Source: Breoghania sp.
GTDB taxonomy: Bacteria; Pseudomonadota; Alphaproteobacteria; Rhizobiales; Stappiaceae
Reading direction: 5' to 3'
DNA length: 64,000 bases
NCBI GenBank assembly: GCA_963678585.2
Contig: CAXXGA010000001.1
Span: forward strand, 518,228-582,227
Positions 5,933 to 22,762 of the stretch are shown in pieces. How positions within the stretch are numbered: the first letter of the stretch is position 1; each line of letters starts with the position of its first letter. The notes beneath the pieces are model-generated. The model made no database searches. It was not told the DNA's origin and saw only the letters and a program-made list of their open reading frames with translations. Made by a program: the position numbers and the translations under genes.

Positions 5933-7210
5933 ATGAGCGACGCGAAATCGTCCCGTATCGAAGGCCTTCACAAGATGTCCCCGGCCGAGCGCCTGCAGGC
6001 CGTGGCGAAACAGGCCGAGCTTGGCAATGCCGCAATCGATAGCCTGACCGCAGCCGCAGAGGGCCAGATCGAGCTGGCGGACCGCATGGTCGAAAACGCC
6101 ATCTCCTCCATGGCCATTCCCATCGGCGTCGCCACCAACATGGTGGTGGACGGCAGGGAAGTTCTCGTGCCCATGGCGACGGAGGAATCCTCCGTCATCG
6201 CGGCCGTCTGCAACTCCGCCAAACGTTGCCGGTCGACCGGCGGGTTCAAGACCTCGGCGAGCGGCCCCGTCATGGCGGCCCAGATCCAGCTTCTGGGCGC
6301 CAGCGACCCGGCCAACGTGCGCCTCAAGGTCTATGAGCACTACGACGAGATCCGCACCATCTGCGACGAGACCGATCCACTTCTGGTGAAGTTCGGCGGG
6401 GGTTTCCGCGATCTCGACATTCGTGTCATCGACACCGACGAAGGCCCGATGACCATCGTCCACATCATCGTGGACACCCGCGATGCGATGGGGGCCAATG
6501 CGGTCAACTCCATGGCGGAGACCCTTGCGCCGCGCCTGGCCGAATGGACCGGCGCGCGCACGCTCCTGCGCATTCTGACCAATCTCGCCGACCGCCGCGT
6601 CGTGCGCGCCCGCGCCGTGTGGCCGGTGAACGAGATCGGTGGCGAGCAGGTGCGCGACGACATGCTGTCGGCCTATCACTTCGCCGATGCCGATCCCTAC
6701 CGTGCGGCGACCCACAACAAGGGCATCATGAACGGTATTTCGGCGGTCGTGCTGGCCACGGGCAATGACACCCGCGCCATCGAGGCGGGCGCACACGCTT
6801 TTGCCGCGCGCGACGGCTGGTACCGTTCCATGTCGCGCTGGGAAGAGGATGCGCAAGGCAATCTCGTCGGCATTCTGGAAATGCCGATGGCCGTCGGCCT
6901 CATCGGCGGGGCGACCAAGATTCACCCGACCGCGCAGGCCAATATCGCCGTTCTCGGCGTGGAGACCGCCGATGCGCTCGCCCGGATCATCGTCTCCGTC
7001 GGCCTTGCGCAGAATTTCGGTGCGATGCGCGCGCTGGCGACGACCGGTATCCAGAAAGGCCACATGGCGCTTCATGCGCAGAATGTGGCGCTGATGGTGG
7101 GCGCCGTCGGCGACGAGATCGATCTGGTCGCCTCGGAACTGAAGGCGCTGGGCAAGGTGCGTCAGGATCTGGCGGAGGAAATCCTCCTGCGGATCCGCGC
7201 TGGCAAGTGA
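5933..7210 (+). CDS. mvaA: Class II (degradative-type) hydroxymethylglutaryl-CoA reductase
   Basis: MVENAI, VPMATEESSVIAA (Glu), DAMGAN, THNKGIMNG (Lys), GNDTRA (Asp), GIQKGHMALH (His): all class II HMGR catalytic motifs present. Confidence 0.93.
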   Translation: MSDAKSSRIEGLHKMSPAERLQAVAKQAELGNAAIDSLTAAAEGQIELADRMVENAISSMAIPIGVATNMVVDGREVLVPMATEESSVIAAVCNSAKRCRSTGGFKTSASGPVMAAQIQLLGASDPANVRLKVYEHYDEIRTICDETDPLLVKFGGGFRDLDIRVIDTDEGPMTIVHIIVDTRDAMGANAVNSMAETLAPRLAEWTGARTLLRILTNLADRRVVRARAVWPVNEIGGEQVRDDMLSAYHFADADPYRAATHNKGIMNGISAVVLATGNDTRAIEAGAHAFAARDGWYRSMSRWEEDAQGNLVGILEMPMAVGLIGGATKIHPTAQANIAVLGVETADALARIIVSVGLAQNFGAMRALATTGIQKGHMALHAQNVALMVGAVGDEIDLVASELKALGKVRQDLAEEILLRIRAGK

Positions 7211-8118
7211 GCGGCACCGTGACATCCGATACCGTCACCATCGTGGAGGTCGGCCCGCGGGACGGCCTCCAGGCCCACAAGGAACCGATCTCGACTGAAG
7301 CGCGGATCGGGCTGATCCAACGTCTTCGAAAGGCCGGCGTCACGCGCATGGAGGTCGGCTCCTTCGTCTCGCCCAAGGCCGTGCCGCGCATGGCGGATAC
7401 GGCGGAGGTGATGGCCGCCGTCGGCTCCGCCTCGCAAGCCGACGACATGGTCCTTGTCGCCAATGCCCGCGGACTCGATCAGGCGATTGCGGAAGGCGCG
7501 CGCACCATTGCGGTCTTCACGGCGGCCAGCGACGGCTTTGCGGAAAAGAACATCGGCTGCACGGTCGATGCCTCGCTGGAACGCTTTGCGCCTATCGTGA
7601 CACGGGCGCGGGAAAACGGCATCACCGTGCGCGGCTATATTTCCACGATCACCGACTGCCCCTATTCCGGCTCCGTCGAACCGGACGCCGTGGTCCGCGT
7701 CGCCAATGCGCTGACCGAGATGGGCTGCGGCGAGATTTCGCTTGGCGAGACGCTGGGCCGCGCCACTCCACGGCGGATCGCCGCCGTCATCGAGGCGGTG
7801 GCGAAAGACGTGCCCATGAGCAGCATTGCCGCCCATTTCCACGACACCTACGGCATGGGCGTCGCCAATGTGTGGGAAGCGGTGCGCCTCGGCGTGCGCA
7901 CGGTGGATGCGGCGGCAGGCGGTCTCGGCGGCTGCCCGTTTGCGCCCGGCGCAACCGGCAATGTGGCGAGCGAAGACGTCATCTACATGCTGCACGGTCA
8001 GGGCTATGAGACCGGCATAGATATGGATGCGCTTCTGGATGCGGCGGCCTATTGCAAGGACGCCATGGGCATCGCCCCGGTGAGCCGGGTCTATCACGCC
8101 ATCCGGCGCTGCATCTGA
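7207..8118 (+). CDS. mvaB: Hydroxymethylglutaryl-CoA lyase
   Basis: EVGPRDGLQ, EVGSFVSPKAVP, HFHDTYG, GLGGCPFAPGATGNVA; GTGA overlap with mvaA stop. Confidence 0.93.
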   Translation: MSGTVTSDTVTIVEVGPRDGLQAHKEPISTEARIGLIQRLRKAGVTRMEVGSFVSPKAVPRMADTAEVMAAVGSASQADDMVLVANARGLDQAIAEGARTIAVFTAASDGFAEKNIGCTVDASLERFAPIVTRARENGITVRGYISTITDCPYSGSVEPDAVVRVANALTEMGCGEISLGETLGRATPRRIAAVIEAVAKDVPMSSIAAHFHDTYGMGVANVWEAVRLGVRTVDAAAGGLGGCPFAPGATGNVASEDVIYMLHGQGYETGIDMDALLDAAAYCKDAMGIAPVSRVYHAIRRCI

Positions 8119-8142
8119 GCCGGGCACGCCTTGAAGGACACG

Positions 8143-8177
8143 ACCGCCGGCCTCGTTGCGCGAGACCGGCGGTTTTT
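8143..8177 (+). terminator. Intrinsic terminator after mvaB
   Basis: ACCGCCGG...CCGGCGGT stem followed by a T-run. Confidence 0.7.
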
Positions 8178-8182
8178 CGCGC

Positions 8183-8626
8183 CTATTCGGCGGCGCTGCT
8201 TTCTCTCCATTCCAGAACGAGCTGGGTCTGCGTGACGACCGCACACAGCTTGCCGTCGCCGCGGGTCACCTTCACTTCCCAGATCATTGTGGTACGCCCG
8301 ACATGGTAGGGCGTGACCGTGGCGCGGGCGATGTCCCCGATACGGATCGGGCGCATGAAATTGGTCTTGCTCTCCAACGTCACCGTGCTCTGGCCTTCGC
8401 CGAGATTCAGAAAGGTGGCCGTGCCGCAGACATTGTCGGCAAGCGACATCAGCGCCCCGCCGTGCAGCACGCCGTTGCGGTTGCCCAGCCACGGCTCAAC
8501 CACCATTTCGCCCACCACTTTTTCCCGGCTGTGAGAGACCGTGCGCATCTTCAAGGCGTCCGCAAAGGGAGACAGCGTATCCGCCACCTGCTGCATCCGG
8601 TCTTCTTCGTCCATCGTCACCGTCAT
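8183..8626 (-). CDS. PaaI/hotdog-fold acyl-CoA thioesterase
   Basis: NRNGVLHGGALMSLADNVCG, TLESKTNFMRP; start likely 8626 or 8614. Confidence 0.85.
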   Translation of the reverse strand: MTVTMDEEDRMQQVADTLSPFADALKMRTVSHSREKVVGEMVVEPWLGNRNGVLHGGALMSLADNVCGTATFLNLGEGQSTVTLESKTNFMRPIRIGDIARATVTPYHVGRTTMIWEVKVTRGDGKLCAVVTQTQLVLEWRESSAAE

Positions 8627-8888
8627 TCGACCTGCCCGTTTCCGTTTTCTGCCGCAAGGTTTAGGACGCGCGCGGGCCCTTGGCAAAGCTTTTCGACCGA
8701 TCGGAAACGTGCATTTTCGCTCTCGATACACCACACAGGCGAAACGGCACTGGTGTCTCAGGGGCAGGTAACGCTAATGTCCTGCACAAGACGATCTGTC
8801 ATCTGAAAAACGGGTCAAAAAAGACACGGCATTCGCCGCGCGGGAGGAGTGCGGCAATCGGACCCTTGGGGAAATCGGGAGGAACTAC

Positions 8889-9776
8889 ATGAGCAGCATC
8901 GCATTCATCGGCCTTGGCAATATGGGCCTGCCCATGGCCATCAATCTGGCCAAGGCGGGCCACAGCGTGACGGCCTTCGATACGGTGGCAGAGGCCGTCG
9001 CGAAAGCGGAAGCCGAAGGCATCAAGGCGGCGCCGGATGCTGCCTCCGCCGTGGCGGACGCCGAGTTCGTCGTCACCATGCTGCCGAACGGCCAGATCGT
9101 GCTGAAGGTCTACGAGGCAATCGTTCCCGCCGCCAAGGCGGGCGCGGTGCTGATCGACTGCTCCACCATCGACGTAGAAAGCGCGCGCAAGGCCCATGCG
9201 ATGTGCGATGCGGCGGGGCTCCTGTCGCTCGATGCGCCGGTTTCAGGCGGCACGGGCGGGGCGGCGGCAGGGACGCTGACCTTCATGACGGGCGGAAAAC
9301 GCGAAGCCTTCGACAAGGCGAGCCCGATCCTCGACGTGATGGGCGGCAAGCTCGTCTATTGCGGCGAAGGCGGTGCGGGACAGGCGGCCAAGATCTGCAA
9401 CAACATGCTGCTCGGCATTTCCATGATCGGGGCCTGCGAAGCCTTCGCACTGGCCGAAAAGCTCGGCCTTGACGCGCAGGCCGCCTTCGACGTGATCTCC
9501 ACTTCCTCAGGTTATTGCTGGTCGGTCAACACCTATTGCCCGGTTCCCGGCGTCGGCCCGCAAAGCCCCGCCGACAACGGCTACAAGCCCGGGTTTGCGG
9601 CCGAACTGATGGCGAAGGATCTGGGTCTTTCCCAACAGGCCGCAGACGGCACCGGTCAAGCGACGCCGATGGGCGCCCGCGCGCTGGAGCTTTACAGCCG
9701 CTTCCTTGAAGAAGGCGGCAAGGGCAAGGATTTCTCCGGCATGATCGAATATCTCAAAACCGCCTCGCGCGCGTAG
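8889..9776 (+). CDS. mmsB: 3-hydroxyisobutyrate dehydrogenase
   Basis: IAFIGLGNMGLPMA, DAPVSGG..GA.AGTLTFM.GG, AKICNNMLLG, YCPVPG, YKPGFAAELM.KDL. Confidence 0.9.
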   Translation: MSSIAFIGLGNMGLPMAINLAKAGHSVTAFDTVAEAVAKAEAEGIKAAPDAASAVADAEFVVTMLPNGQIVLKVYEAIVPAAKAGAVLIDCSTIDVESARKAHAMCDAAGLLSLDAPVSGGTGGAAAGTLTFMTGGKREAFDKASPILDVMGGKLVYCGEGGAGQAAKICNNMLLGISMIGACEAFALAEKLGLDAQAAFDVISTSSGYCWSVNTYCPVPGVGPQSPADNGYKPGFAAELMAKDLGLSQQAADGTGQATPMGARALELYSRFLEEGGKGKDFSGMIEYLKTASRA

Positions 9777-10311
9777 GTTCGCGGCACACGATCATGTGAG
9801 GTCACGGCAAACAGACCCGCATTTCGCAACCGGCTCCCGGCGTCTTGCCCGGGAGCCCCTTTCCGGCGTTCCGTTTTTCCCCGAAGACGACTTGCCGCAG
9901 AGATCCGTGCATTAGTCGCACGAGATCAAGCCCCCCCTCCACAAGCGCCCCGGCTTTTCCCGCCTCATGCGCGAACCCTCGCGGCGATACAGCCTGCGCA
10001 AATCGTTCTGTCCGCGACGGCAGTTTGCTCATCCCGCGCCGACGCAACTCGACAGTATTTTTGCCTAGTGTGCTAATTGTCTTGTTATGCTCTTCGTCTT
10101 TCTCCAGCCCCGCGACACAGATGTGAGCCGGAATTGACGGAAAGATTGACAATCATCAAAGTGCACATACTGCTATTTCCTGTTAGTTTTCGAAACAGTC
10201 ACTCAACCAGTTTGCAATCCAAGGAATTGTGCCCCGACGCGGAGGACACGATACTGCCCCACTCCCGCTCCCAGCGACCCGGGCAGAGACATGAGAATCG
10301 AGGGACGTCCA

Positions 10312-11568
10312 ATGACAAAGTTCAGGAAATTTCTGGCCGCAACAGCGGTTGCCGCATTCGCCCTGCCGGGCATCGCCAATGCAGATGGGACTGTCGAGGT
10401 TCTGCACTGGTGGACATCCGGCGGCGAGGCGAAGGCGGTCGGCGAACTGAAGAACGCGTTCGAGGCCGACGGCGGGAAGTGGATCGATTCCCCCATCGCC
10501 GGCGGCGGCGGGGATGCGGCCATGACTGCGCTTCGCGCCCGCGTGGTGTCCGGCAATCCTCCGACCGCGGTGCAGCTCAAGGGCCCCGGCATTCAGGAAT
10601 GGGCCGAGCTTGGTGCGCTCAACGATGTGCAGGACGTGGCCACGTCCGAGAACTGGGACGGCGTGCTGCCGCCCGCGCTTGCCGAGATCATGAAATATGA
10701 CGGCAAATACGTCGCCGCGCCGGTGAACATCCACCGCGTCGACTGGTTCTGGGCGAACCCGGAAGTGCTCGCCAAGGTCGGCGTCACCGACATGCCGCAG
10801 ACATGGGACGAGTTCAACGCCATCGCCGACAAGCTTCAGGCGGCCGGCATCACGCCGCTCGCCCACGGCGGCCAGCCCTGGCAGGACGCGACGCTGTTCG
10901 AGGACGTCGTGCTCGGCATCGGCGGGCCGGAATTCTTCCTGAAGGCGCTGGTGGAACTCGATCAGGATGCGCTGACCAGCGACACGATGATCAAGTCCTT
11001 CGACCAGCTCCGCAAGCTGCGCGGCTATGTGGACGCCAATTTCTCGGGCCGCGACTGGAACCTCGCAACCGCCATGGTGATGCGCGGCGAGGCCGGTTTC
11101 CAGATCATGGGCGACTGGGCCAAGGGTGAATTCCTCGCCGCCGGCAAGGTGCCGGGCAAGGACTTCGTCTGCGCGGCAACGCCGGGCAAGGGCTTCGTGC
11201 TCAATTCCGACAGCTTCACCTTCTTCAAGGTGTCGGGAGACGATCGCATCAAGGGCCAGAAGAAGCTCGCCAGCCTGATCATGTCGCCGAGCTTCCAGGA
11301 GACCTTCAACCTCGCCAAGGGATCGATCCCGGCCCGCACGGATGTCGCGCTCGACAAGTTCGACGCTTGCGCCAAGAAGTCCCACGAGGATCTGCTGGCG
11401 GCCATCGAGAGCAATTCGCTCGTGCCTTCCATGGCGCATGAAATGGCCGTTTCTCGCTCCGTGCGCGGCGAGTTCATGGATCTCGTGACCAACTTCTTCA
11501 ATTCCGACATGAGCTCTGAGGACGCGGTGAAGACGCTTGCCGCAGCCATCAAGCGGGCCCAGCAGTAG
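10312..11568 (+). CDS. Sugar ABC transporter substrate-binding protein (glucose/GtsA-like)
   Basis: Sec signal MTKFRKFLAATAVAAFALPGIANA; EVLHWWTSGGE, APVNIHR.DW.W.N, HGGQPWQDATLF, QIMGDWAKGEF, PSMAH. Confidence 0.88.
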   Translation: MTKFRKFLAATAVAAFALPGIANADGTVEVLHWWTSGGEAKAVGELKNAFEADGGKWIDSPIAGGGGDAAMTALRARVVSGNPPTAVQLKGPGIQEWAELGALNDVQDVATSENWDGVLPPALAEIMKYDGKYVAAPVNIHRVDWFWANPEVLAKVGVTDMPQTWDEFNAIADKLQAAGITPLAHGGQPWQDATLFEDVVLGIGGPEFFLKALVELDQDALTSDTMIKSFDQLRKLRGYVDANFSGRDWNLATAMVMRGEAGFQIMGDWAKGEFLAAGKVPGKDFVCAATPGKGFVLNSDSFTFFKVSGDDRIKGQKKLASLIMSPSFQETFNLAKGSIPARTDVALDKFDACAKKSHEDLLAAIESNSLVPSMAHEMAVSRSVRGEFMDLVTNFFNSDMSSEDAVKTLAAAIKRAQQ

Positions 11569-11586
11569 GATACGTCCCGGTATCAG

Positions 11587-11617
11587 GAGCCGGCGCGTCT
11601 CGACGCGCCGGCTCTTT
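11587..11617 (+). other. Intercistronic stem-loop after the sugar-binding protein gene
   Basis: 13-bp perfect inverted repeat GAGCCGGCGCGTC / GACGCGCCGGCTC followed by TTT. Confidence 0.65.
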
Positions 11618-11648
11618 CGTCTGCCGTTTTTGAATCTCGCGGGGGGAG

Positions 11649-12530
11649 ATGTTCTCGATGGGACGCCTCATGGAGCGATGGCTGCCGAAACTGGTGGTTT
11701 CTCCACTGTTCGCAGTCAGCCTTTTCTTCGTCTACGGCTTCATCGCCTGGACGCTCTACATCTCGTTCACCCGCTCCGGCATCCTGCCGAACTACGATCT
11801 GGCGGGACTGATCCAGTACACGCGGCTGTGGCAGACGCCGCGCTGGTACGTGGCGCTGGCGAACCTCTTCGTCTTCTCCGCACTCTTCATCGGGGTCTGC
11901 ACGATCATCGGCATCATCCTCGCCATTTTGCTGGACCAGCGCATCCGGGCGGAGGGCGCGATCCGCACAGTCTTCCTCTACCCGATGGCGCTTTCCTTCA
12001 TCGTCACGGGAACGGCGTGGAAGTGGATCCTCAATCCCGGCCTCGGGCTTGAAAAGGTCGTCCACGGTTTCGGCTTCACCGACTTCCGTTTCGACTGGCT
12101 GGTCAATCCGGATATGGCCATCTACACGGTGGTGATCGCGGGCGTGTGGCAATCGTCGGGCTATGCGATGGCGCTGTTTCTGGCTGGCCTTCGCTCCGTC
12201 GACGACGACGTTCTGAAGGCGGCCGCCATCGACGGAGCCGGGCCCTGGCGCACCTATACGCGCATCGTTTTGCCGAACCTGAGGCCGGTGTTCCTGTCGG
12301 TCTTCATCATTCTGGCGCACCTCTCCATCAAGAGCTTCGACCTCGTCATCGCGCTCACCAACGGCGGGCCGGGATATGCCACCGACATGCCCGCAACCTT
12401 CATGTACGCCTTCGCCTTCCAGCGTTCCGAACTGGGGACCGCGGCGGCAAGCGCGGTGATGATGCTGGCGACGATCCTGGCGATCATCGTTCCCTATCTC
12501 TATTCGGAACTGAGGGAGGCGAAACGATGA
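11649..12530 (+). CDS. Sugar ABC transporter permease
   Basis: Hydrophobic; LYPMALSFIVTG.AWKW, EAA-loop variant LKAAAIDGAG, DLVIALTNGGPG. Confidence 0.9.
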   Translation: MFSMGRLMERWLPKLVVSPLFAVSLFFVYGFIAWTLYISFTRSGILPNYDLAGLIQYTRLWQTPRWYVALANLFVFSALFIGVCTIIGIILAILLDQRIRAEGAIRTVFLYPMALSFIVTGTAWKWILNPGLGLEKVVHGFGFTDFRFDWLVNPDMAIYTVVIAGVWQSSGYAMALFLAGLRSVDDDVLKAAAIDGAGPWRTYTRIVLPNLRPVFLSVFIILAHLSIKSFDLVIALTNGGPGYATDMPATFMYAFAFQRSELGTAAASAVMMLATILAIIVPYLYSELREAKR

Positions 12531-13420
12531 GCAACGAACCGGCTCCGGGCATCGTGCGCGCAAGGGGCAGCACGCAGATTTTCCTGCGATATCTGCTCTA
12601 TGCGCTGCTCGCCCTCTTCTGCCTCTACTATCTGACACCGCTTTTCGTGATGGTGACGACGTCTCTGAAAAGCGTCGACGAGATCCGGCAGGGCTCGCTC
12701 ATCGCGCTACCGCAGGCACCCAGTCTCGCCGCATGGACGAAGGCGTGGGACACGGCCTGCGTGGGCGTGCGCTGCGACGGGCTGAAGCCCTATTTCTGGA
12801 ACTCCATCGTCATGGTCGTTCCCGCCGTTCTGCTGTCGTCCTTTCTCGGTGCGCTCAACGGCTACGCGCTCACCAAGTGGCGCTTTCGCGGCGCGAACGT
12901 CATCTTCGCGCTGATGCTGTTCGGGGCCTTCATCCCGTTTCAGGTGGTGCTGCTGCCAATGGCCCGGACACTCGGCGCGCTGGGGCTGGCGGGATCGGTC
13001 TTCGGACTGATCCTCGTCCACACGGTCTATGGCCTCGCCTTTTCGACGCTGTTCTTCCGAAACTTCTTCGTCGGCGTCTCCGACAGCATCGTCAACGCGG
13101 CCAAGATCGACGGGGCGGGCTTCTTCCGCATCTTCTTCGCGATCATGATGCCGATGGCCCTTCCGGCCATGGTCGTGACCATCATCTGGCAGTTCACCCA
13201 GATCTGGAACGACTTCCTGTTCGGCGTCGCCTTCACCATCGGCGACAGCAACCCGCTGACCGTTGCGCTGAACAACCTCGTCAACACCTCCACGGGCGTG
13301 AAGGAATACAACGTCGACATGGCAGCCGCGATCATCGCCGCGCTGCCGACGCTTCTCGTCTACATCATTGCAGGCAAATATTTCGTCCGCGGTCTGGCCG
13401 CCGGCGCTGTGAAAGAATAG
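12527..13420 (+). CDS. Sugar ABC transporter permease
   Basis: ATGA overlap; TSLKS..EI, NAAKIDGAG, WQFTQIWNDFLFG, AALPTLLVY..AGKYFVRGL. Confidence 0.9.
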   Translation: MSNEPAPGIVRARGSTQIFLRYLLYALLALFCLYYLTPLFVMVTTSLKSVDEIRQGSLIALPQAPSLAAWTKAWDTACVGVRCDGLKPYFWNSIVMVVPAVLLSSFLGALNGYALTKWRFRGANVIFALMLFGAFIPFQVVLLPMARTLGALGLAGSVFGLILVHTVYGLAFSTLFFRNFFVGVSDSIVNAAKIDGAGFFRIFFAIMMPMALPAMVVTIIWQFTQIWNDFLFGVAFTIGDSNPLTVALNNLVNTSTGVKEYNVDMAAAIIAALPTLLVYIIAGKYFVRGLAAGAVKE

Positions 13421-13432
13421 GCAACGCGAACC

Positions 13433-14539
13433 ATGGCCAGCATCAGCCTTCAAGACATCTGGAAACGCTTCTCCGGCGTGGAGGTTCTCAAGGGCATCGA
13501 CCTTGAGATCGAGGACGGGGAATTCGTCGTGCTCGTCGGCCCCTCGGGCTGCGGGAAGTCCACCCTGCTCAATCTCATCTCGGGGCTTGAGACGATCTCG
13601 TCGGGCCAGATCGTGATCGGGGACAGGACCGTCAACGACATCCCGCCGAAGGATCGCGACATCGCACTGGTGTTCCAGTCCTATGCGCTTTACCCGACCA
13701 AGACGGTGGAGGACAACATCACCTTCGGGATGCAGACCCGCAAGGTGCCGCAGGCTGAACAGAAGGCGGCGCTGGCGGAGGTCTCCGGCATGCTGCATAT
13801 CGATCATCTTCTTGAGCGCAAACCCGGCCAGTTGTCGGGCGGCCAGCGCCAGCGCGTCGCCATGGGCCGGGCGCTGGTGCGCAAGCCGGAAGTGTTTCTC
13901 TTCGACGAGCCACTTTCCAATCTCGACGCCAAGCTGCGCATCGAGATGCGCACCGAGATCAAGAAGCTGCACCAGCGCCTCGGCAAGACCATCGTCTATG
14001 TGACCCACGACCAGATCGAGGCCATGACGCTGGCCAGCCGGATCGCGGTGATGGACAACGGCCATATCCGCCAGTTCGCCGATCCCAAGACGATCTATGA
14101 GGAGCCGGTCGATCTCTTCGTGGCCGGTTTCATGGGCTCGCCGCCGATGAACATGCTGCCGGGCACGCTTCTGCGCGACGGAGATCTGTTCGTCGTGCCC
14201 GACGGGGCCGGTCCGGGGCTTCGCTTCCCGTTGCCCGCAGACATCGCAGGCCGCGTCACGGCCGAAGACGGGCACGAGGTGATGCTCGGCATGCGGCCGG
14301 AGACGATCTTTGCCGCGGGAACCGAGCTTCCCGGTCCGGACCGTTTCGTCTTCGAACGCCCTGTGGAGGTGATCGAGCCGACGGGGCCGGACACGATGCT
14401 GGTCTTCACCATCGGGGAGACGGAGCTTTTCGCGCGCGTCCGTCCGCAGGATGCGGGTGCACAAGACGCACCGTTCCGCTTCGAGGTCGAGATGTCCAAG
14501 GCGAAGCTGTTTGACCGCAAAACGGGCTTGCGACTTTAG
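13433..14539 (+). CDS. Sugar ABC transporter ATP-binding protein (MalK family)
   Basis: [46 protein letters not shown]-terminal TOBE-like region. Confidence 0.93.
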
Positions 14540-14599
14540 AGGGCATCGGTGAATCTGCCGATCCTGCCCTCTTGCCCACCAGTTTGCCGAAGACCCCGC

Positions 14600-15142
14600 A
14601 TGATCAAGACACGCCCTCTCGTCCCTGAGGCCTTCGCCCCCTTCGGTCAGGTCCTGCGCAGCGGTGCGGGCGATACGAAGATGATCCGCGACGGGCAGGT
14701 CCTCATGACCAAGACGCTCGCAGAGGTCGACCATGAGCCTGAGGGCAGCGATTTCGCCATCGACTTTCATGACGTACCCGCGCTGTCCGGTCCGCTCGTC
14801 ATACGGGAGGCGGAACGGCACCTGCAGTCGGCGCAGGTCTTCGTGCCGGTAAACGCCTCGCGCTACCTCGTTGTCGTATGGCCGGGAGACCCCGGCCCCG
14901 GCGTGGAGCCCATCGCCTTCATCGCGGGCGCGCAGGACGTGATCGTCTACAATCCCGGCACCTGGCATCACGGCATCGTGGCGCTCGACCGGCGCGCGGT
15001 GTTCACCTCGCTTTTCTGGCGGCCCAATGACGGGCGACCCGACACGATCTTCCAGACGCTGCAAGAGCCCATCAAGGTGGACTGGATGTCCATGCCCGCA
15101 GATCTCAGCGGGCGCGAAGAAAGCGCCTTCGGCGGGTGGTGA
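14600..15142 (+). CDS. Ureidoglycolate lyase (AllA)-family protein
   Basis: PL..EAFAPFGQV, ERH...QVFVP, YLVVV, Y.PGTWHH cupin motifs of the AllA family. Confidence 0.7.
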   Translation: MIKTRPLVPEAFAPFGQVLRSGAGDTKMIRDGQVLMTKTLAEVDHEPEGSDFAIDFHDVPALSGPLVIREAERHLQSAQVFVPVNASRYLVVVWPGDPGPGVEPIAFIAGAQDVIVYNPGTWHHGIVALDRRAVFTSLFWRPNDGRPDTIFQTLQEPIKVDWMSMPADLSGREESAFGGW

Positions 15143-15349: not shown

Positions 15350-16645
15350 ATGGTCGATCTTCTCATTCGCAACGCCAACCTGCCCGACGGGCGGGAGGGC
15401 ATGGACATTGCTGTCACGAACGGCCTCATCACCGCCGTCGAACATGACATTCCCACCGAGGCGGGAAGCGTGGTGGAAGCCGACCGGTGCCTCGTCACCC
15501 CGCCCTTCGTCGACCCGCATTTCCACATGGATGCGACCCTGTCTCTCGGGCTGCCGCGGATGAACGTCTCCGGCACCTTGCTTGAGGGTATTTCGCTGTG
15601 GGGCGAGCTGCGCCCCATGCTGAGCCGGGAAGCGGTGGTCGAACGCGCACTCAAATATTGCGATCTCGCTGTCTCGCAGGGGCTTCTGGCCATCCGCTCG
15701 CATGTGGACGTATCCGATCCGAAGCTCGTCACCGTGGAAGCGCTGCTTGAGGTTCGCGAGAAGGTCGCGCCCTATATCGACCTGCAGCTCGTCGCCTTCC
15801 CGCAGGACGGCTACTACCGCTGCCCGGAGGCTGCCGATGCGCTGACCCGCGCGCTCGATATGGGCGTCGACGTGGTGGGCGGCATCCCGCATTTCGAGCG
15901 CACCATGGAAGAGGGCCGCAAGTCGGTGGAGGCGCTGTGCCGGATCGCGGCGGAACGCGGGCTTCGCGTCGATATGCATTGCGACGAGAGCGACGATCCA
16001 ATGTCGCGCCACATCGAAACGCTGACGGCGGAAACCGTGCGCCACGGACTTCAGGGCCGGGTGGCCGGTTCGCACCTCACCTCCATGCACTCCATGGACA
16101 ACTACTACGTCTCCAAGCTCATCCCGCTGATGGCGGAGGCGCAGATACACGCCATCCCGAACCCGCTCATCAACATCATGCTTCAGGGGCGGCACGACAC
16201 CTACCCCAAGCGCCGCGGCATGACCCGTGTGCGCGAACTGATGGAAGCCGGGATCAACGTCGCCTTCGGCCACGACTGCGTGATGGACCCCTGGTACTCG
16301 ATGGGCTCCGGCGACATGCTGGAAGTCGCCCATATGGCGGTTCACGTGGGGCAGATGGCTTCCATGGAGGATCGCCGCAAGCTCTTCGACGCCGTCACGG
16401 TCAACTCCGCCCGCGTCATGGGACTTGAAGGCTACGGACTGGAGCCGGGCTGCAACGCCGACATGGTGATCCTGCAGGCGCGCGATCCGCTGGAGGCCCT
16501 GCGCCTTAAGGCGACGCGGCTGGCGGTGATCAGACGTGGCAAGCTGATTGCCAGAACACTGCCGCGGGTGGCCAGCCTCAACATTCCCGGGAGGCCGGAT
16601 ATGGTCGACCCTGCAAGTTACGCCCCTGGCGCGGGCGACGAATAG
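15350..16645 (+). CDS. codA: Cytosine deaminase (CodA)-family amidohydrolase
   Basis: PFVDPHFHMD, VAFPQDG, GGIPHFE, MHCDE, GSHLTS, GHDCVMDPWY. Confidence 0.9.
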   Translation: MVDLLIRNANLPDGREGMDIAVTNGLITAVEHDIPTEAGSVVEADRCLVTPPFVDPHFHMDATLSLGLPRMNVSGTLLEGISLWGELRPMLSREAVVERALKYCDLAVSQGLLAIRSHVDVSDPKLVTVEALLEVREKVAPYIDLQLVAFPQDGYYRCPEAADALTRALDMGVDVVGGIPHFERTMEEGRKSVEALCRIAAERGLRVDMHCDESDDPMSRHIETLTAETVRHGLQGRVAGSHLTSMHSMDNYYVSKLIPLMAEAQIHAIPNPLINIMLQGRHDTYPKRRGMTRVRELMEAGINVAFGHDCVMDPWYSMGSGDMLEVAHMAVHVGQMASMEDRRKLFDAVTVNSARVMGLEGYGLEPGCNADMVILQARDPLEALRLKATRLAVIRRGKLIARTLPRVASLNIPGRPDMVDPASYAPGAGDE

Positions 16646-16787: not shown

Positions 16788-17789
16788 ATGGCGATCCTGA
16801 ATTCAATGACACGCCGCCGCGTACTTGCGGCCGGTGCAGCACTTGGCGCAGGCCTTGCGGTGACCGTTGCCGGTCACGGCGCAGCCTTTGCCGCCGACGT
16901 TCTCAAGGTTGCGGGCATTCATGCCTCGCCGGTGGAGAACGCCTGGAACTCGCGTCTTCACGAAGCTCTGCTGGCAGCCGCGAAGGACGGTGTCATCGAG
17001 TATGAATTCTCCGAAGGCATTTCCGGCACTGACTACCCGCGCGCCATGCGCGAATATGCGGAAAAGGGCGTCGATCTGGTGATCGGCGAATCCTATGCGG
17101 TCGAACGCGAAGCGCGTCAGGTCGCCAAGGACTATCCGAACGTGGCCTTCGTGATGGGCTCCTCGGGCGAGGCCTCCGGCGACAATTTCGGCGTCTTCGG
17201 CACGTGGAACCACGACGGCGCGTATCTCGCGGGCATGCTGGCCGGCAAGATGACGAAGACCAACATCGTCGGCTCCGTCGGCGCGATCCCGATCCCGGAA
17301 GTCAATCAGCTCATCAACGCCTTCAATGCGGGCGTGAAGGAAGTGAACCCGGAAGCCAAGACGCTCGTCTCCTTCATCGGCACCTTCTTCGATCCCCCGA
17401 AGGCGCGTGAAGCGGGTCTTGCCGAAATCGACGCGGGCGCGGATATCCTGTTCGGCGAGCGCATCGGCACGGCGGATGCCGCCAAGGAGCGCGGCATCAA
17501 GGCCGTCGGCTCGCTGATCGACTACACCGACCGCTATCCCGACACCGTCTTCGCCAATGCCATGTGGTACTTCCGCCCGATCCTCGATGCGGCCATCGCG
17601 GACGTGAAGGCCGGCAAGCCGGTCGGCAAGAACTACACCGCCTACGGCCTGATGAAGGACGGTGGTTCCGACATCGTCTACACCAAGGGCGTTGCGCCTG
17701 CAGATGCCGAAGCGGCGATGGAGAAGCGCCGCGCCGAGATCAAGGCCGGCACCTTCGAGGTTCCGCGCGACATCAGCGAACCGAAGTAA
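16788..17789 (+). CDS. BMP/PnrA-family nucleoside ABC transporter substrate-binding protein
   Basis: Tat-like TRRRVLAAG signal; YLAGMLAGKMTKTNIVGSVG, FNAGVKEVNP, GADIL motifs. Confidence 0.88.
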   Translation: MAILNSMTRRRVLAAGAALGAGLAVTVAGHGAAFAADVLKVAGIHASPVENAWNSRLHEALLAAAKDGVIEYEFSEGISGTDYPRAMREYAEKGVDLVIGESYAVEREARQVAKDYPNVAFVMGSSGEASGDNFGVFGTWNHDGAYLAGMLAGKMTKTNIVGSVGAIPIPEVNQLINAFNAGVKEVNPEAKTLVSFIGTFFDPPKAREAGLAEIDAGADILFGERIGTADAAKERGIKAVGSLIDYTDRYPDTVFANAMWYFRPILDAAIADVKAGKPVGKNYTAYGLMKDGGSDIVYTKGVAPADAEAAMEKRRAEIKAGTFEVPRDISEPK

Positions 17790-17825
17790 GACACAGCCGT
17801 TTGAGGCTTGAGGGTCACTGAGACC

Positions 17826-19259
17826 ATGACAACACAGAACGACGCGATGGCCCTTGCCGAGGCCATCGCGTCTTCACGTGTAAGCGCGCTTGAAGCCATG
17901 GAGGCATCCCTTCAGGCTGCGCGCGAGCACGCGGATCTCGGCGCAATCGACGTGCTCGTGCCCGAACTGGGCCTTGCCCGCGCAGACGCGCTGGAAGAGG
18001 AGCGTCACGACAATCCCGAACGATTTGCCGCCCGCCCCTTTGCAGGCGTCCCGACGCTCGCCAAGGATCTGGGCAGCCCCTTTGCCGGAATTCCCGGTGC
18101 CGCCGGTTCCAACGCACTGCGCGGCCTATCCGACGGAAGTGCGGATTCCGAGTTCGCACGGCGTGTGCGCGAGACGGGCCTCGTGCCCTTCGGCAACACG
18201 CTGGTGCCGGAATTCGGCATGTCCGTTTCCACCGAACCTCTGGGCCGTGCGCCGACGCGCAATCCGCTCGACCCCACCCGCACGGCGGGCGGCTCGTCCG
18301 GCGGATCCGCGAGCGCGGTCGCTTCCGGCATCGTCGCCATCGCGCACGCCACCGACGCCGGTGGCTCCATCCGAATTCCCGCCGCCTGTTGCGGCCTCAT
18401 CGGGCTGAAGCCCTCGCGCGGGGTCATGCCCGGCGCACCCGATTTCCGCAACCATCTGGGCGGGCTGGCGGCCGAGCTTGCCGTCTGCCGCTCCATCCGC
18501 GATGCGCGCCTTGCCTTCGATCATCTGGTGGGAGACGCCCGCGGCCCCGCACCGGAACCCGTGATCGAGCAGACCTGGAGCAGGTTCGCAAGCAACGAGC
18601 CGCGCACCATCGGGCTCATCACCGACTGCGGGCCTTATGCGATTTCCGCCGCGCGCGCCGATGCGGTCGCAAGCACGGCGGCGCTTCTGGAAGGCGCGGG
18701 CCATCGAATCGTCGATCTGCCCTTTACCCGGATCGCCGGGCTGGTGGAGACGGGCCGCAAGGCGTTCGACCGGATCATCTGCGCCTTCACGGCGGCCATG
18801 TTTGCACAAGGCACGCTCGATGAAGGCAAGATCGAGCCGCTGACCCGCGCCGCCCTTGCCCGCGGACGGGCCATGCCCGCGCATGAACTGTGGAGCGCGA
18901 TGCAAGAAGGCGTGCTTGCCGCCCATGCGATGTGGCAGATCTTCGACGAGGTCGATACTGTGCTCGCACCGATGCTGGCGGATGCACCGCCGCATCTCGG
19001 CGCCTTTCCGACAGATCACGACGACGTCCAAGCGCATTGGGACCGCATGACCGCTTTTGCCCCGCTCGCCTCTCTGGCCAACATCACCGGCGTGCCTGCG
19101 CTCAGCATGCCCGTGGGCGCAGATGGCGACGGGCTGCCGCTTCCCGTGCAACTCCTCGCCCCGATGGGAGCCGACCGCCGCCTTCTCTCGCTTGGCGCAA
19201 CGCTTGAGGCGCTCAGCCCGTGGACCCACCGCTTCCCCGTCGCGGGGCTTGCCTCATGA
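17826..19259 (+). CDS. Amidase-signature family hydrolase
   Basis: GVPTLAKDL (Lys), AGGSSGGSA (cis-Ser), ATDAGGSIRIPAACCGLIGLKPSRG (Ser), ANITGVPALSMP. Confidence 0.9.
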   Translation: MTTQNDAMALAEAIASSRVSALEAMEASLQAAREHADLGAIDVLVPELGLARADALEEERHDNPERFAARPFAGVPTLAKDLGSPFAGIPGAAGSNALRGLSDGSADSEFARRVRETGLVPFGNTLVPEFGMSVSTEPLGRAPTRNPLDPTRTAGGSSGGSASAVASGIVAIAHATDAGGSIRIPAACCGLIGLKPSRGVMPGAPDFRNHLGGLAAELAVCRSIRDARLAFDHLVGDARGPAPEPVIEQTWSRFASNEPRTIGLITDCGPYAISAARADAVASTAALLEGAGHRIVDLPFTRIAGLVETGRKAFDRIICAFTAAMFAQGTLDEGKIEPLTRAALARGRAMPAHELWSAMQEGVLAAHAMWQIFDEVDTVLAPMLADAPPHLGAFPTDHDDVQAHWDRMTAFAPLASLANITGVPALSMPVGADGDGLPLPVQLLAPMGADRRLLSLGATLEALSPWTHRFPVAGLAS

Positions 19260-20782
19260 GCGATACGCCCGTCCTGCGCCTTTCCAATATCTCCAAGACC
19301 TTCGGCACGACGGTGGCCAACGATGCCGTCTCCATCGATCTTGCCCATGGCGAGGTGCTGGCGCTTCTGGGTGAGAACGGAGCGGGCAAGACGACGCTGA
19401 TGTCGATCCTCTTCGGCCACTACACGCCCGATACGGGCACGGTGGAGGTGGAGGGTCGGGAGCTGCCGCCGGGCCGCCCGAGGGCTGCCATCGATGCGGG
19501 CGTCGGCATGGTTCACCAGCACTTCTCGCTGGCGCCGAACCTGACGGTTCTGGAAAACGTCATGACCGGAACGCAGAGCCTCGTAAAGCTGCGCTCCGAC
19601 ACGAAAACCGCGCGCGCGAAACTTGCCGAACTGGCCGACCGCTTCGGTCTCGCGGTCGATCCGGATGCGCGACTCGGCGACCTTTCCGTCGGCGAGCAGC
19701 AGCGCGTGGAAATTCTCAAGGCGCTCTATAACGACGCGAAGATCCTGATCCTCGACGAGCCGACCGCCGTGCTCACCAATGTGGAGGCCGAACGGCTTTT
19801 CGCCACCCTGCGGGAGATGGCGCGCCAGGGCCTGTCGCTGATCTTCATCTCGCACAAGCTGCACGAGGTGATCGCAGCCGCCGACCGCGTCGTCGTCCTG
19901 CGCGGCGGCAAGGTGGTGGCCGAGAGGCAGGCCTCTGAGACCACCAAGGACGAGCTGGCGGAACTGATGGTGGGCCGCCGCATCGCGCGGCCCAAGCGCG
20001 AGGCGGGCAAGCCCGGTGCGATGGTTCTGGAAGCCATCGGCGCATCGCTCACCGTTGATGACGTCGCCCGGCTGACCGACCTGAATTTCAAGCTCCATGC
20101 GGGCGAAACGCTCGGCATCATCGGCGTTTCCGGCAATGGGCAGGCCCAGCTCGCCCAGATGGTTTCCGGCCTCGCCACCCCCACCGAAGGCGAGCTGCGG
20201 CTCTTCGACGAGCCGATCACCGAGGGCGTGGCAGCCCTCGTTGAGGCCGGGGTCGGGCGCATTCCCGAAGACCGCAATTCCGAAGGGGCCATCGGCGAGA
20301 TGACCCTTTGGGAGAACGCGATCCTTGAGCGGGTCAGAAGCCCGCGGTTTTCGAAGAACGGCCTCGTCAACCGGCAAGCGGCGCGCGCCTTCGCCAATAC
20401 GATCATCGAGGAATTCGACGTGCGCGGCGGGGTGCCCGACCGACGCACGCGGCTTCTTTCCGGCGGCAACATGCAAAAGCTCATCCTCGGGCGGAACCTG
20501 CACGATGCGCCGAAGCTGCTCATCGCCGCCCAACCCACGCGCGGGTTGGATGAAGGCGCGATTGCCGCCGTCCATACCCGAATTCTGGAAGCACGCAACA
20601 ATGGCGCAGCGGTTCTGCTGATCTCGGAGGATCTGGAAGAGGTGATCAATCTGGCCGACCGCATCCAGGCCATCGTCAAGGGACGGCTTTCCCCGCCGCT
20701 TGCAGCCGAAGAAGCGGATGCGCGCAAGCTCGGCCTGATGATGGCGGGCGACTGGAGCAAGGAGGTCGTCCATGCGTCTTGA
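19256..20782 (+). CDS. Nucleoside/simple-sugar ABC transporter ATP-binding protein (two ABC domains)
   Basis: LLGENGAGKTT, LSVGEQQRVEILK, ILDEPTAVL, LSGGNMQK, AQPTRGLD. Confidence 0.92.
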   Translation: MSDTPVLRLSNISKTFGTTVANDAVSIDLAHGEVLALLGENGAGKTTLMSILFGHYTPDTGTVEVEGRELPPGRPRAAIDAGVGMVHQHFSLAPNLTVLENVMTGTQSLVKLRSDTKTARAKLAELADRFGLAVDPDARLGDLSVGEQQRVEILKALYNDAKILILDEPTAVLTNVEAERLFATLREMARQGLSLIFISHKLHEVIAAADRVVVLRGGKVVAERQASETTKDELAELMVGRRIARPKREAGKPGAMVLEAIGASLTVDDVARLTDLNFKLHAGETLGIIGVSGNGQAQLAQMVSGLATPTEGELRLFDEPITEGVAALVEAGVGRIPEDRNSEGAIGEMTLWENAILERVRSPRFSKNGLVNRQAARAFANTIIEEFDVRGGVPDRRTRLLSGGNMQKLILGRNLHDAPKLLIAAQPTRGLDEGAIAAVHTRILEARNNGAAVLLISEDLEEVINLADRIQAIVKGRLSPPLAAEEADARKLGLMMAGDWSKEVVHAS

Positions 20783-21821
20783 ACGCCGCGCCCACAGGCC
20801 GTTCGGGCTGGTCGTCGCCTCGCCGATCATCGCCATCTTCGCAGCGCTCGCCATTTCCGGCGTGCTGATCGCGCTGGCAGGCGCGCCCGTTCTCGAAGCC
20901 TATTACCAGATCGGCGTCGGCTCCTTCGGTTCCCGCCTTGCCGCGACCGAAACCCTGACGCGGGCGACCCCGCTCATCTTCACCGGCCTCGCCGCCGCCG
21001 TCGCCTTCCGCGCGCAGGTCTGGAACATCGGCGCTGAAGGTCAGTTCTTCATCGGCGCAATTGCGGTCGCCGCCTTCGGCGCGGAACTCACCGCAGGCAT
21101 GCCGCCCGCGCTCGCCATCCCCGTGCTGATGCTGATCGGGGCGATTGCAGGTGCCTTCGTGCTGCTGGTACCGCTCGGCCTGCGCCTGCGTTTCGGCGTC
21201 GACGAGGTGGTGACCACGCTGCTTTTGAATTTCGTGGCCGTGCTCTTCGTCTCCATGATGATCGAGGGCCCGCTGAAAGACCCGCTCGCCTTCGGCTGGC
21301 CGCAGTCCGTTCCGGTCGCCGACAATGCGCTCCTGCCGAAGATCATCGCGCGCACGCGTCTGCACATAGGATTGATTGTCGCCATCGTCATCGCCGTCAT
21401 CGTCTATGCGGTTCAGGCGCGCACGGTCTTCGGGCTTCAGTCCAAGGCCGCGGGCCTCAGCCCAAGGGCCGCGCGATTTGCGGGCGTGCCGCTGGCGTCC
21501 ACGCTCATCAAGGTCGCGTGTCTTTCCGGCGGGCTTGCGGGCCTTGCGGGCGCGGTGGAGGTGATGGGCGTGAAAGGCTATGTCACGACCGACCTTTCGC
21601 CCGGTTTCGGCTATTCCGGCATCATCGTTGCCATGCTCGCCAACCTGCACCCGGTGGGCGTGGTGGCCGCCGCCATCTTCACCGCGGCGATGTTCGTGGG
21701 CGCTGACGGCATGAGCCGGGCCATCGGCATTCCCAGCTACATCGCTGACGTGACGGTCGCGCTTTCGCTGCTGACCATGCTGGTCGCGATCTTCTTCACG
21801 CAGTACAGGATCCGCAAATAA
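20772..21821 (+). CDS. Nucleoside ABC transporter permease
   Basis: TPLIFTGLA.AVAFRA..WNIGAEGQ, GVDEVVTTLLLN, GFGYSGIIVAMLA.LHP. Confidence 0.9.
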   Translation: MRLERRAHRPFGLVVASPIIAIFAALAISGVLIALAGAPVLEAYYQIGVGSFGSRLAATETLTRATPLIFTGLAAAVAFRAQVWNIGAEGQFFIGAIAVAAFGAELTAGMPPALAIPVLMLIGAIAGAFVLLVPLGLRLRFGVDEVVTTLLLNFVAVLFVSMMIEGPLKDPLAFGWPQSVPVADNALLPKIIARTRLHIGLIVAIVIAVIVYAVQARTVFGLQSKAAGLSPRAARFAGVPLASTLIKVACLSGGLAGLAGAVEVMGVKGYVTTDLSPGFGYSGIIVAMLANLHPVGVVAAAIFTAAMFVGADGMSRAIGIPSYIADVTVALSLLTMLVAIFFTQYRIRK

Positions 21822-22762
21822 TGGAGATCCTCGAAATCTTCGCCTCCGCCGGTCTGTGGGCTGCCGTGCTGCGCATCGCAACCCCGCTGATCTTCGGCAC
21901 GCTGGGCGCGCTGCTCTGCGAACGCTCCGGCGTCCTCAATCTCGGGATCGAAGGCATCATGACCTTCGGCGCGATGATCGGCTGGCTCGCCGTCTTCAAC
22001 GGCGCGGATCTGTGGACCGGGCTGCTGGTCGCCGCCATTTTCGGCGCGGCCTTCGGCCTGCTTCATGCGGGCCTCACCGTCACGCTGGGCCTTTCCCAGC
22101 ATGTGACCGGCCTCGGCATCACGCTCTTTGCAAGTTCGCTGAGCTATTTCCTCTTCCGGCTGATCGTACCGGTGGCGGGCACGCCGCCGACAATCGAGCC
22201 CTTCCAGCCGATCGACATTCCGGGCTTGAGCGACCTGCCCTTCATCGGGCCGGCGCTCTTCACGCAGACAGCGCCGACCTATCTCGCCATCGCGCTGGCC
22301 GTCGTGCTGGCCTATGCGCTGTTCTTCACGCCGCTTGGGCTTGCGGTGCGCATGACGGGCGAGAACCCGCATGCGGCGGAAGCGCAGGGCGTCAATCCGA
22401 TCAAGGTGCGGTACGGCGCGATCATGCTGGGCAGTGCCTTGATGAGCGTCGGCGGCTCGTTCCTGACGCTTTCGGCCTTCAACTCCTTCTTCCCCACCAT
22501 GATCCAGGGCCGCGGCTGGGTGTGCATCGCGCTTGTGGTCTTCTCCTCGTGGAAGCCGAGCCGCGCGCTTCTCGGCGCGCTGCTCTTTGCGCTGTTCGAC
22601 GCTTATCAGCTTCGCCTGCAGACGGTCGTCGGCAAGGCGGTGCCCTATCAGCTCTTCCTGATGGTGCCCTACGTGATGTCGATTGTCGCTCTGGTGGTGA
22701 TGGCACGGCGCGCACGCGTGCCTCAGGCGCTGATGCAAGCCTATCGGCGCGGCGAGCGGTAA
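21821..22762 (+). CDS. Nucleoside ABC transporter permease
   Basis: ERSGVLNLGIEG, GLAVRMTGENP.AA, GRGWVCIALV, PQALM. Confidence 0.9.
   Translation: MEILEIFASAGLWAAVLRIATPLIFGTLGALLCERSGVLNLGIEGIMTFGAMIGWLAVFNGADLWTGLLVAAIFGAAFGLLHAGLTVTLGLSQHVTGLGITLFASSLSYFLFRLIVPVAGTPPTIEPFQPIDIPGLSDLPFIGPALFTQTAPTYLAIALAVVLAYALFFTPLGLAVRMTGENPHAAEAQGVNPIKVRYGAIMLGSALMSVGGSFLTLSAFNSFFPTMIQGRGWVCIALVVFSSWKPSRALLGALLFALFDAYQLRLQTVVGKAVPYQLFLMVPYVMSIVALVVMARRARVPQALMQAYRRGER

Follow-up and report, generated by a model that had tools for sequence, protein, structure and literature searches.

A Breoghania CodA-family protein with cysteine at the Asp314-equivalent position is predicted to be a cytosine deaminase with relaxed C5 specificity

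Introduction

The locus analysed here raises the question of which substrates a CodA-family deaminase would accept when cysteine stands in place of the aspartate that discriminates at C5 of the pyrimidine ring, and what such an enzyme would do in the cell. Deamination of 5-methylcytosine (5mC) by E. coli cytosine deaminase is prevented by D314 (PMC9081823), and the Klebsiella 5-methylcytosine deaminase carries serine at this position, while an alanine mutant of CodA gains activity on 5mC (PMC6186785). These two papers corroborate the premise of an earlier note on this DNA, namely that Asp314 is the discriminator in E. coli CodA and that the Klebsiella homologue lacks it. The note had claimed that a 64,000-nucleotide stretch of Breoghania sp. 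DNA (the window, by which is meant the whole stretch that was analysed) encodes a CodA homologue with cysteine at the equivalent of Asp314 and with its metal ligands otherwise intact, and it had predicted activity on 5mC and 5-fluorocytosine (5-FC). The reading to which the present analysis leads, with a probability of roughly 0.8, is that the protein is a general cytosine deaminase with relaxed C5 specificity rather than a dedicated 5mC enzyme, and that it would serve pyrimidine salvage and nitrogen scavenging fed by an importer.

Results

The gene product is a CodA-family protein outside the E. coli type

The gene and the codons on which its assignment turns are the following.

15350..16645, plus strand: CodA-family (NF005748/PRK07572) cytosine deaminase gene, an ORF running from the ATG at 15350 to the stop at 16645 (431 aa)
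15518..15526, plus strand: His57-x-His59, equivalent by alignment to the CodA metal ligands His61/His63
16274..16276, plus strand: codon of Asp309, equivalent by alignment to CodA Asp313 (metal ligand and catalytic residue)
16277..16279, plus strand: codon TGC of Cys310, equivalent by phmmer alignment to E. coli CodA Asp314 (the C5 discriminator position)

The 431-aa translation contains the motif AFGHDCVMDPWY. Homologues are 428 to 433 aa long and begin at the same start Met, so the gene limits proposed in the earlier note are right. The top NCBIfam match was NF005748 (PRK07572, "cytosine deaminase"), on which the protein scored 800 bits against a cutoff of 438, whereas on the E. coli-type model NF006685 (PRK09230), the family that E. 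coli CodA itself matches best, it scored 434 bits and remained below the cutoff of 483. Amidohydro_3 and Amidohydro_1 were the Pfam domains found. In a phmmer search against PDB sequences, 1k6w was matched at 363 bits (E 2e-107) over query residues 6-418, and 1k70 and the variant structures were matched at E ~1e-107.

The E. coli K-12 codA gene (from NC_000913) translates to CFGHDDVFDPWY. In the phmmer alignment of the window protein to the PDB CodA chains, D309 fell on D313 and C310 fell on D314, and no gap came closer than 100 residues to the motif in either direction. The equivalence of the residues is unambiguous because the alignment scores 363 bits, runs from end to end, and has no gap near the motif, and the cysteine at the Asp314-equivalent position was in this way borne out. 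E. coli position 314 is residue 315 when the full-length translation is numbered from Met1, and it is because of numbering from Met1 that the E. coli pair is named Asp314/Asp315 in PMC6186785. The statement that the metal ligands are otherwise intact also held, since H57, H59, H210, and D309 align to the CodA ligands. The other active-site residues are kept as well, with H57/H59 corresponding to H61/H63, Q152 to Q156, H210 to H214, E213 to E217, and H242 to H246.

Metal ligands, substrate and catalytic residues, and full-length similarity all place the protein among the CodA-family mononuclear metal cytosine deaminases of the amidohydrolase superfamily. Cys310 in place of Asp and the sub-cutoff NF006685 score place it outside the E. 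coli-type CodA proteins (PRK09230), which exclude 5-substituents. An identity as an AtzC-like triazine hydrolase was also considered and was rejected, as CodA was matched at 363 bits and AtzC at 156 bits, and the substrate-binding set of CodA is complete in the protein.

Compared with E. coli CodA (cytosine/isoguanine deaminase, PDB 1K6W/1K70), the window protein shares the fold family, the length, the metal ligands, and the catalytic residues, and differs in having Cys for Asp314 and Met for Phe316. Kpn00632 of Klebsiella pneumoniae (5-methylcytosine deaminase, PDB 4R7W/4R85/4R88) is a CodA homologue without Asp314 that scores 339 bits to the window protein; it has Ser at the position (PMC6186785), whereas the window protein has Cys. 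The PDB entries 1r9x, 1r9y, and 1r9z are variants of E. coli CodA, and the alignments show Ala (1r9y) and Ser (1r9z) at position 314. The counterpart of CodA Phe316 is Met312 (16283-16285), and Met or Leu stands at this site in Cys-type and in most Ser-type lineages (for example, HDCVM, QDCVL, HDSIM, and QDSVM). Going by these motifs, it may also belong to the pocket and vary in concert with the loss of Asp314.

Cysteine is found throughout the closest relatives

A homology search returned at least 8,000 candidates, and residues were counted in the best 120 of them. All 120 carried Cys at the position, 117 in the motif GHDC and 3 in GQDC. Among these best 120, the Breoghania proteins were 85 to 95% identical to the window protein, and those of Rhizobium, Sinorhizobium, Pelagibacterium, Limimaricola, and Maritimibacter were 77 to 81% identical. 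With all 120 closest homologues carrying it, Cys310 is neither accidental nor peculiar to this protein. Judged by these alignments, cysteine is the invariant state of an alphaproteobacterial family with thousands of members. The wider family is more varied: at position 314, 82 full-length representatives taken at 50% identity had Asn in 35, Asp in 22, Ser in 10, Cys in 8, and Val in 3, with other residues in the remainder. In a tree, the Ser- and Val-bearing lineages were placed near the E. coli clade.

The same pattern was seen at the level of genomes. A PRK07572 member (at least 735 bits) was present in 22 of 41 related genomes, including 21 of the 24 other genomes in the family of the window's genome. 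None of the 41 genomes contained an NF005748 match of between 231 and 734 bits, a range within which E. coli CodA falls, at 491 bits on the same model, and therefore Asp-type CodA is absent from these organisms. In the window's own genome, the gene is the sole close relative of CodA, and an E. coli-type CodA is absent there.

A distant paralogue annotated as "cytosine deaminase" lies elsewhere in that genome (contig C3, 219034-220233; locus L002, 1477-2835, minus strand). It matches NF005759/PRK07583 at 603 bits, reads ASDNTRDPFY with Asn at the CodA-314 position, and adjoins a 468-aa gene. Most of the related genomes hold a paralogue with a similar NF005748 score (140 to 230 bits).

The protein groups with the cysteine-type enzyme of Rhodobacter sphaeroides

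A PufL query was used to find close relatives of R. sphaeroides, and this led to two genomes, that of Rhodobacter sp. NSM and that of Cereibacter johrii JA192, in which PufL matches the R. sphaeroides query at 100% identity. Each of these genomes has one CodA homologue (E <= 1e-10), 62 to 63% identical to the window protein, and both homologues read GWGQDCVLDPWY. The C. johrii protein scored 752 bits on NF005748, and its 90%-identity cluster includes ABA79516.1, a "cytosine deaminase" of C. sphaeroides ATCC 17023 (= 2.4.1). ABA79516.1 has the same motif as the C. johrii protein (GQDC) and is 61% identical to the window protein over 419 residues. A maximum-likelihood tree built from 41 representatives of the family placed the window protein in a clade (SH-aLRT 100) with the Rhizobium, Limimaricola, and Cereibacter proteins and a further representative, P0121; all 5 members of this clade carry Cys, and E. 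coli CodA lies elsewhere in the tree.

ABA79516.1 and the window protein thus have in common the NCBIfam family NF005748/PRK07572, Cys at the CodA-314 position, and the clade. They differ within the motif, which is GHDCVM in the window protein and GQDCVL in the Rhodobacter enzyme, with Gln for the His that precedes the metal Asp. ABA79516.1 is probably Rsp0341 of R. sphaeroides, because no other CodA homologue was found in the genome of the closest relative, C. johrii. Rsp0341 was the subject of work by Hitchcock et al. of 2014 and reportedly deaminates 5mC and 5-FC, with kcat/Km values said to be ~3e4 (5mC) and ~7e4 (5FC) M-1 s-1; our literature searches on Rsp0341/NCgl0075 returned nothing useful. 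The window protein has both features expected of a 5mC-accepting CodA homologue, a residue other than Asp at 314 and a place in the clade of the R. sphaeroides enzyme (via the C. johrii orthologue). Because it belongs to the same family and clade as this Cys-bearing enzyme, activity on 5mC and 5-FC is predicted by orthology, and the substrate prediction made earlier is to this extent reasonable.

The gene heads an importer operon

Downstream of the deaminase gene lie the genes of a BMP-type ABC importer, all of them between 16788 and 22762.

16788..17789, plus strand: BMP/PnrA-family ABC substrate-binding protein, with AtzT (6pi5) and a Brucella BMP protein (3s99) as the nearest solved relatives
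17808..19259, plus strand: amidase-signature enzyme inside the transporter operon, by family match
19256..20782, plus strand: double ABC ATPase of the BMP-type importer
20772..21821, plus strand: permease (BPD_transp_2)
21821..22762, plus strand: permease (BPD_transp_2)

This arrangement differs from that in E. coli, where codA is paired with the NCS1 permease CodB. The linkage to the importer is conserved. Pelagibacterium and Maritimibacter have the same gene set around their orthologues, ordered as in the window, and so does Rhizobium mesosinicum, except that codA comes last there. In Rhodobacter sp. NSM, the near relative of R. sphaeroides, the gene adjoins an orthologous BMP-type importer as it does in the window, the order there being Bmp, ATPase, permease, permease, codA; compared with this operon, the window has codA first and an additional amidase gene. 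The amidase gene is missing from the Limimaricola operon as well. The binding protein is 78% identical to its Rhizobium orthologue and 51% identical to that of Rhodobacter sp. NSM. AtzT and the Brucella BMP protein are binders of free bases rather than nucleosides. A literature search for a transportome link between the binding protein and cytosine gave nothing useful. A scan for Rfam families and for promoters and terminators across the 9.5-24 kb part of the window found nothing above background.

Other genes were seen near these operons. In Limimaricola sp. (locus L004, 9926-10408), a gene for a CDA-fold (dCMP_cyt_deam_1) deaminase separates the Cys-type codA homologue from the BMP ABC importer, and therefore two unrelated cytosine-type deaminase folds occur there in one neighbourhood. 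In the window, a ureidoglycolate-lyase-like cupin gene (14597-15142, plus strand; Pfam PF04115, E 1.6e-25; NCBIfam equivalogs all far below cutoff) is flanked by a sugar-type ABC operon (10291-14539) and by codA. This gene is probably outside the deaminase system because a cupin beside codA was not found in the five other genomes inspected. Farther upstream (5933-9776, plus strand), a degradative NAD-type HMG-CoA reductase, an HMG-CoA lyase, an ORF without a family match, and a 3-hydroxyisobutyrate dehydrogenase are encoded in tandem, and these genes look like a mevalonate or branched-chain catabolic cluster.

The amidase gene points to possible alternative substrates

The amidase gene is placed between the binding-protein and ATPase genes, and its end overlaps the start of the latter. 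This position is conserved in Rhizobium (53% identity), Pelagibacterium, and Maritimibacter. The nearest solved structure is that of NylA, a 6-aminohexanoate cyclic dimer hydrolase (155 bits), and every NCBIfam match of the amidase was below its cutoff. A conserved amidase is not accounted for by a plain model of cytosine uptake.

One explanation is that the physiological substrate is another amino-heterocycle, such as creatinine, isoguanine, an s-triazine-like compound, or an N-acylated or carbamoylated base, on which the amidase acts before or after the deaminase, and that cytosine and 5mC are side reactions. Retention of an amidase-signature gene within the transporter operon of Breoghania, Rhizobium, Pelagibacterium, and Maritimibacter would fit this explanation, as would the top PDB match of the binding protein, which is the atrazine-pathway protein AtzT, the standing of AtzC as the next solved homologue of the deaminase, and the JGI label "cytosine/creatinine deaminase" on several homologues. 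However, the deaminase has the complete CodA substrate-binding set, including Q152 and E213, and its score to CodA (363 bits) far exceeds that to AtzC (156 bits). Operons free of the amidase occur in Rhodobacter sp. NSM and Limimaricola, and the Rhodobacter-type enzyme is reportedly active on cytosine derivatives. Finally, the amidase is the least conserved gene of the operon, at 53% identity compared to 78 to 81% for the binding protein and the deaminase. Another amino-heterocycle is for these reasons an unlikely physiological substrate.

A more specific proposal is that the operon takes in an amide-bearing or N-acylated cytosine-like base, from which the amidase would remove the acyl group before the Cys-type CodA deaminates it. 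A modified nucleobase would then be broken down in two steps, by a route not previously described, but we consider this improbable enough to be offered as speculation.

Discussion

The reading preferred here is that of a general cytosine deaminase, relaxed in its C5 pocket and fed by an importer. The alignment, the conservation, the place in the clade, and the conserved operon are observations; the range of substrates, the ligand of the importer, and the role in the cell are inferred. The deaminase gene is clustered or co-transcribed with the genes of the BMP-type ABC importer, which most likely would bring in the free base. At the mononuclear metal centre, cytosine would be hydrolytically deaminated to uracil and ammonia, with proton transfers by E213, H242, and D309 as in CodA. 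The uracil would be salvaged by Upp, as a upp gene (uracil phosphoribosyltransferase) is present in the genome, and the ammonia would be assimilated as a nitrogen source. The genome also encodes one Dcm-like methyltransferase. Replacement of the Asp314 carboxylate by Cys would make the C5 side of the pocket smaller and less polar, and therefore 5-methyl- and 5-fluorocytosine should be accepted; the predicted products are thymine from 5mC and 5-FU from 5-FC. That Cys310 instead serves in redox regulation or as an extra metal contact in a strictly cytosine-specific enzyme is highly improbable: the residue is chemically reactive, adjoins the metal ligand Asp309, and is invariant in the 120 closest homologues, but sister clades have Ser, Val, or Asn at the position, which fits a steric or polarity role better than a thiol-specific one, and Ala, Gly, and Ser variants of E. 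coli CodA have been engineered there, of which the Ala variant gains 5mC activity (PMC6186785).

The phrase "salvages modified cytosines" in the earlier note stands as a statement of predicted capacity. As a statement of role it does not, since the context points to general cytosine uptake and deamination. The novelty that the note implied is not upheld, as the cysteine is invariant in a family of thousands and one member has already been characterised, and its suggestion of a better 5-FC prodrug activator is speculation. As the R. sphaeroides enzyme is, as far as could be established, a member of this family, the prediction is sound but not new, the Cys state and the activity on 5-substituted cytosines being covered by published work. 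With the principle and one representative of the family in print since 2014, no older question is opened to testing by this gene, and the significance is mainly one of annotation.

Members of PRK07572 are mostly named "amidohydrolase family protein" or "cytosine deaminase". The analysis supports one annotation, cytosine deaminase with a relaxed C5 pocket, for the whole of the Cys-type family found widely across Hyphomicrobiales and Rhodobacterales. Such an annotation would imply that 5-methylcytosine can be recycled to thymine in many soil and marine alphaproteobacteria.
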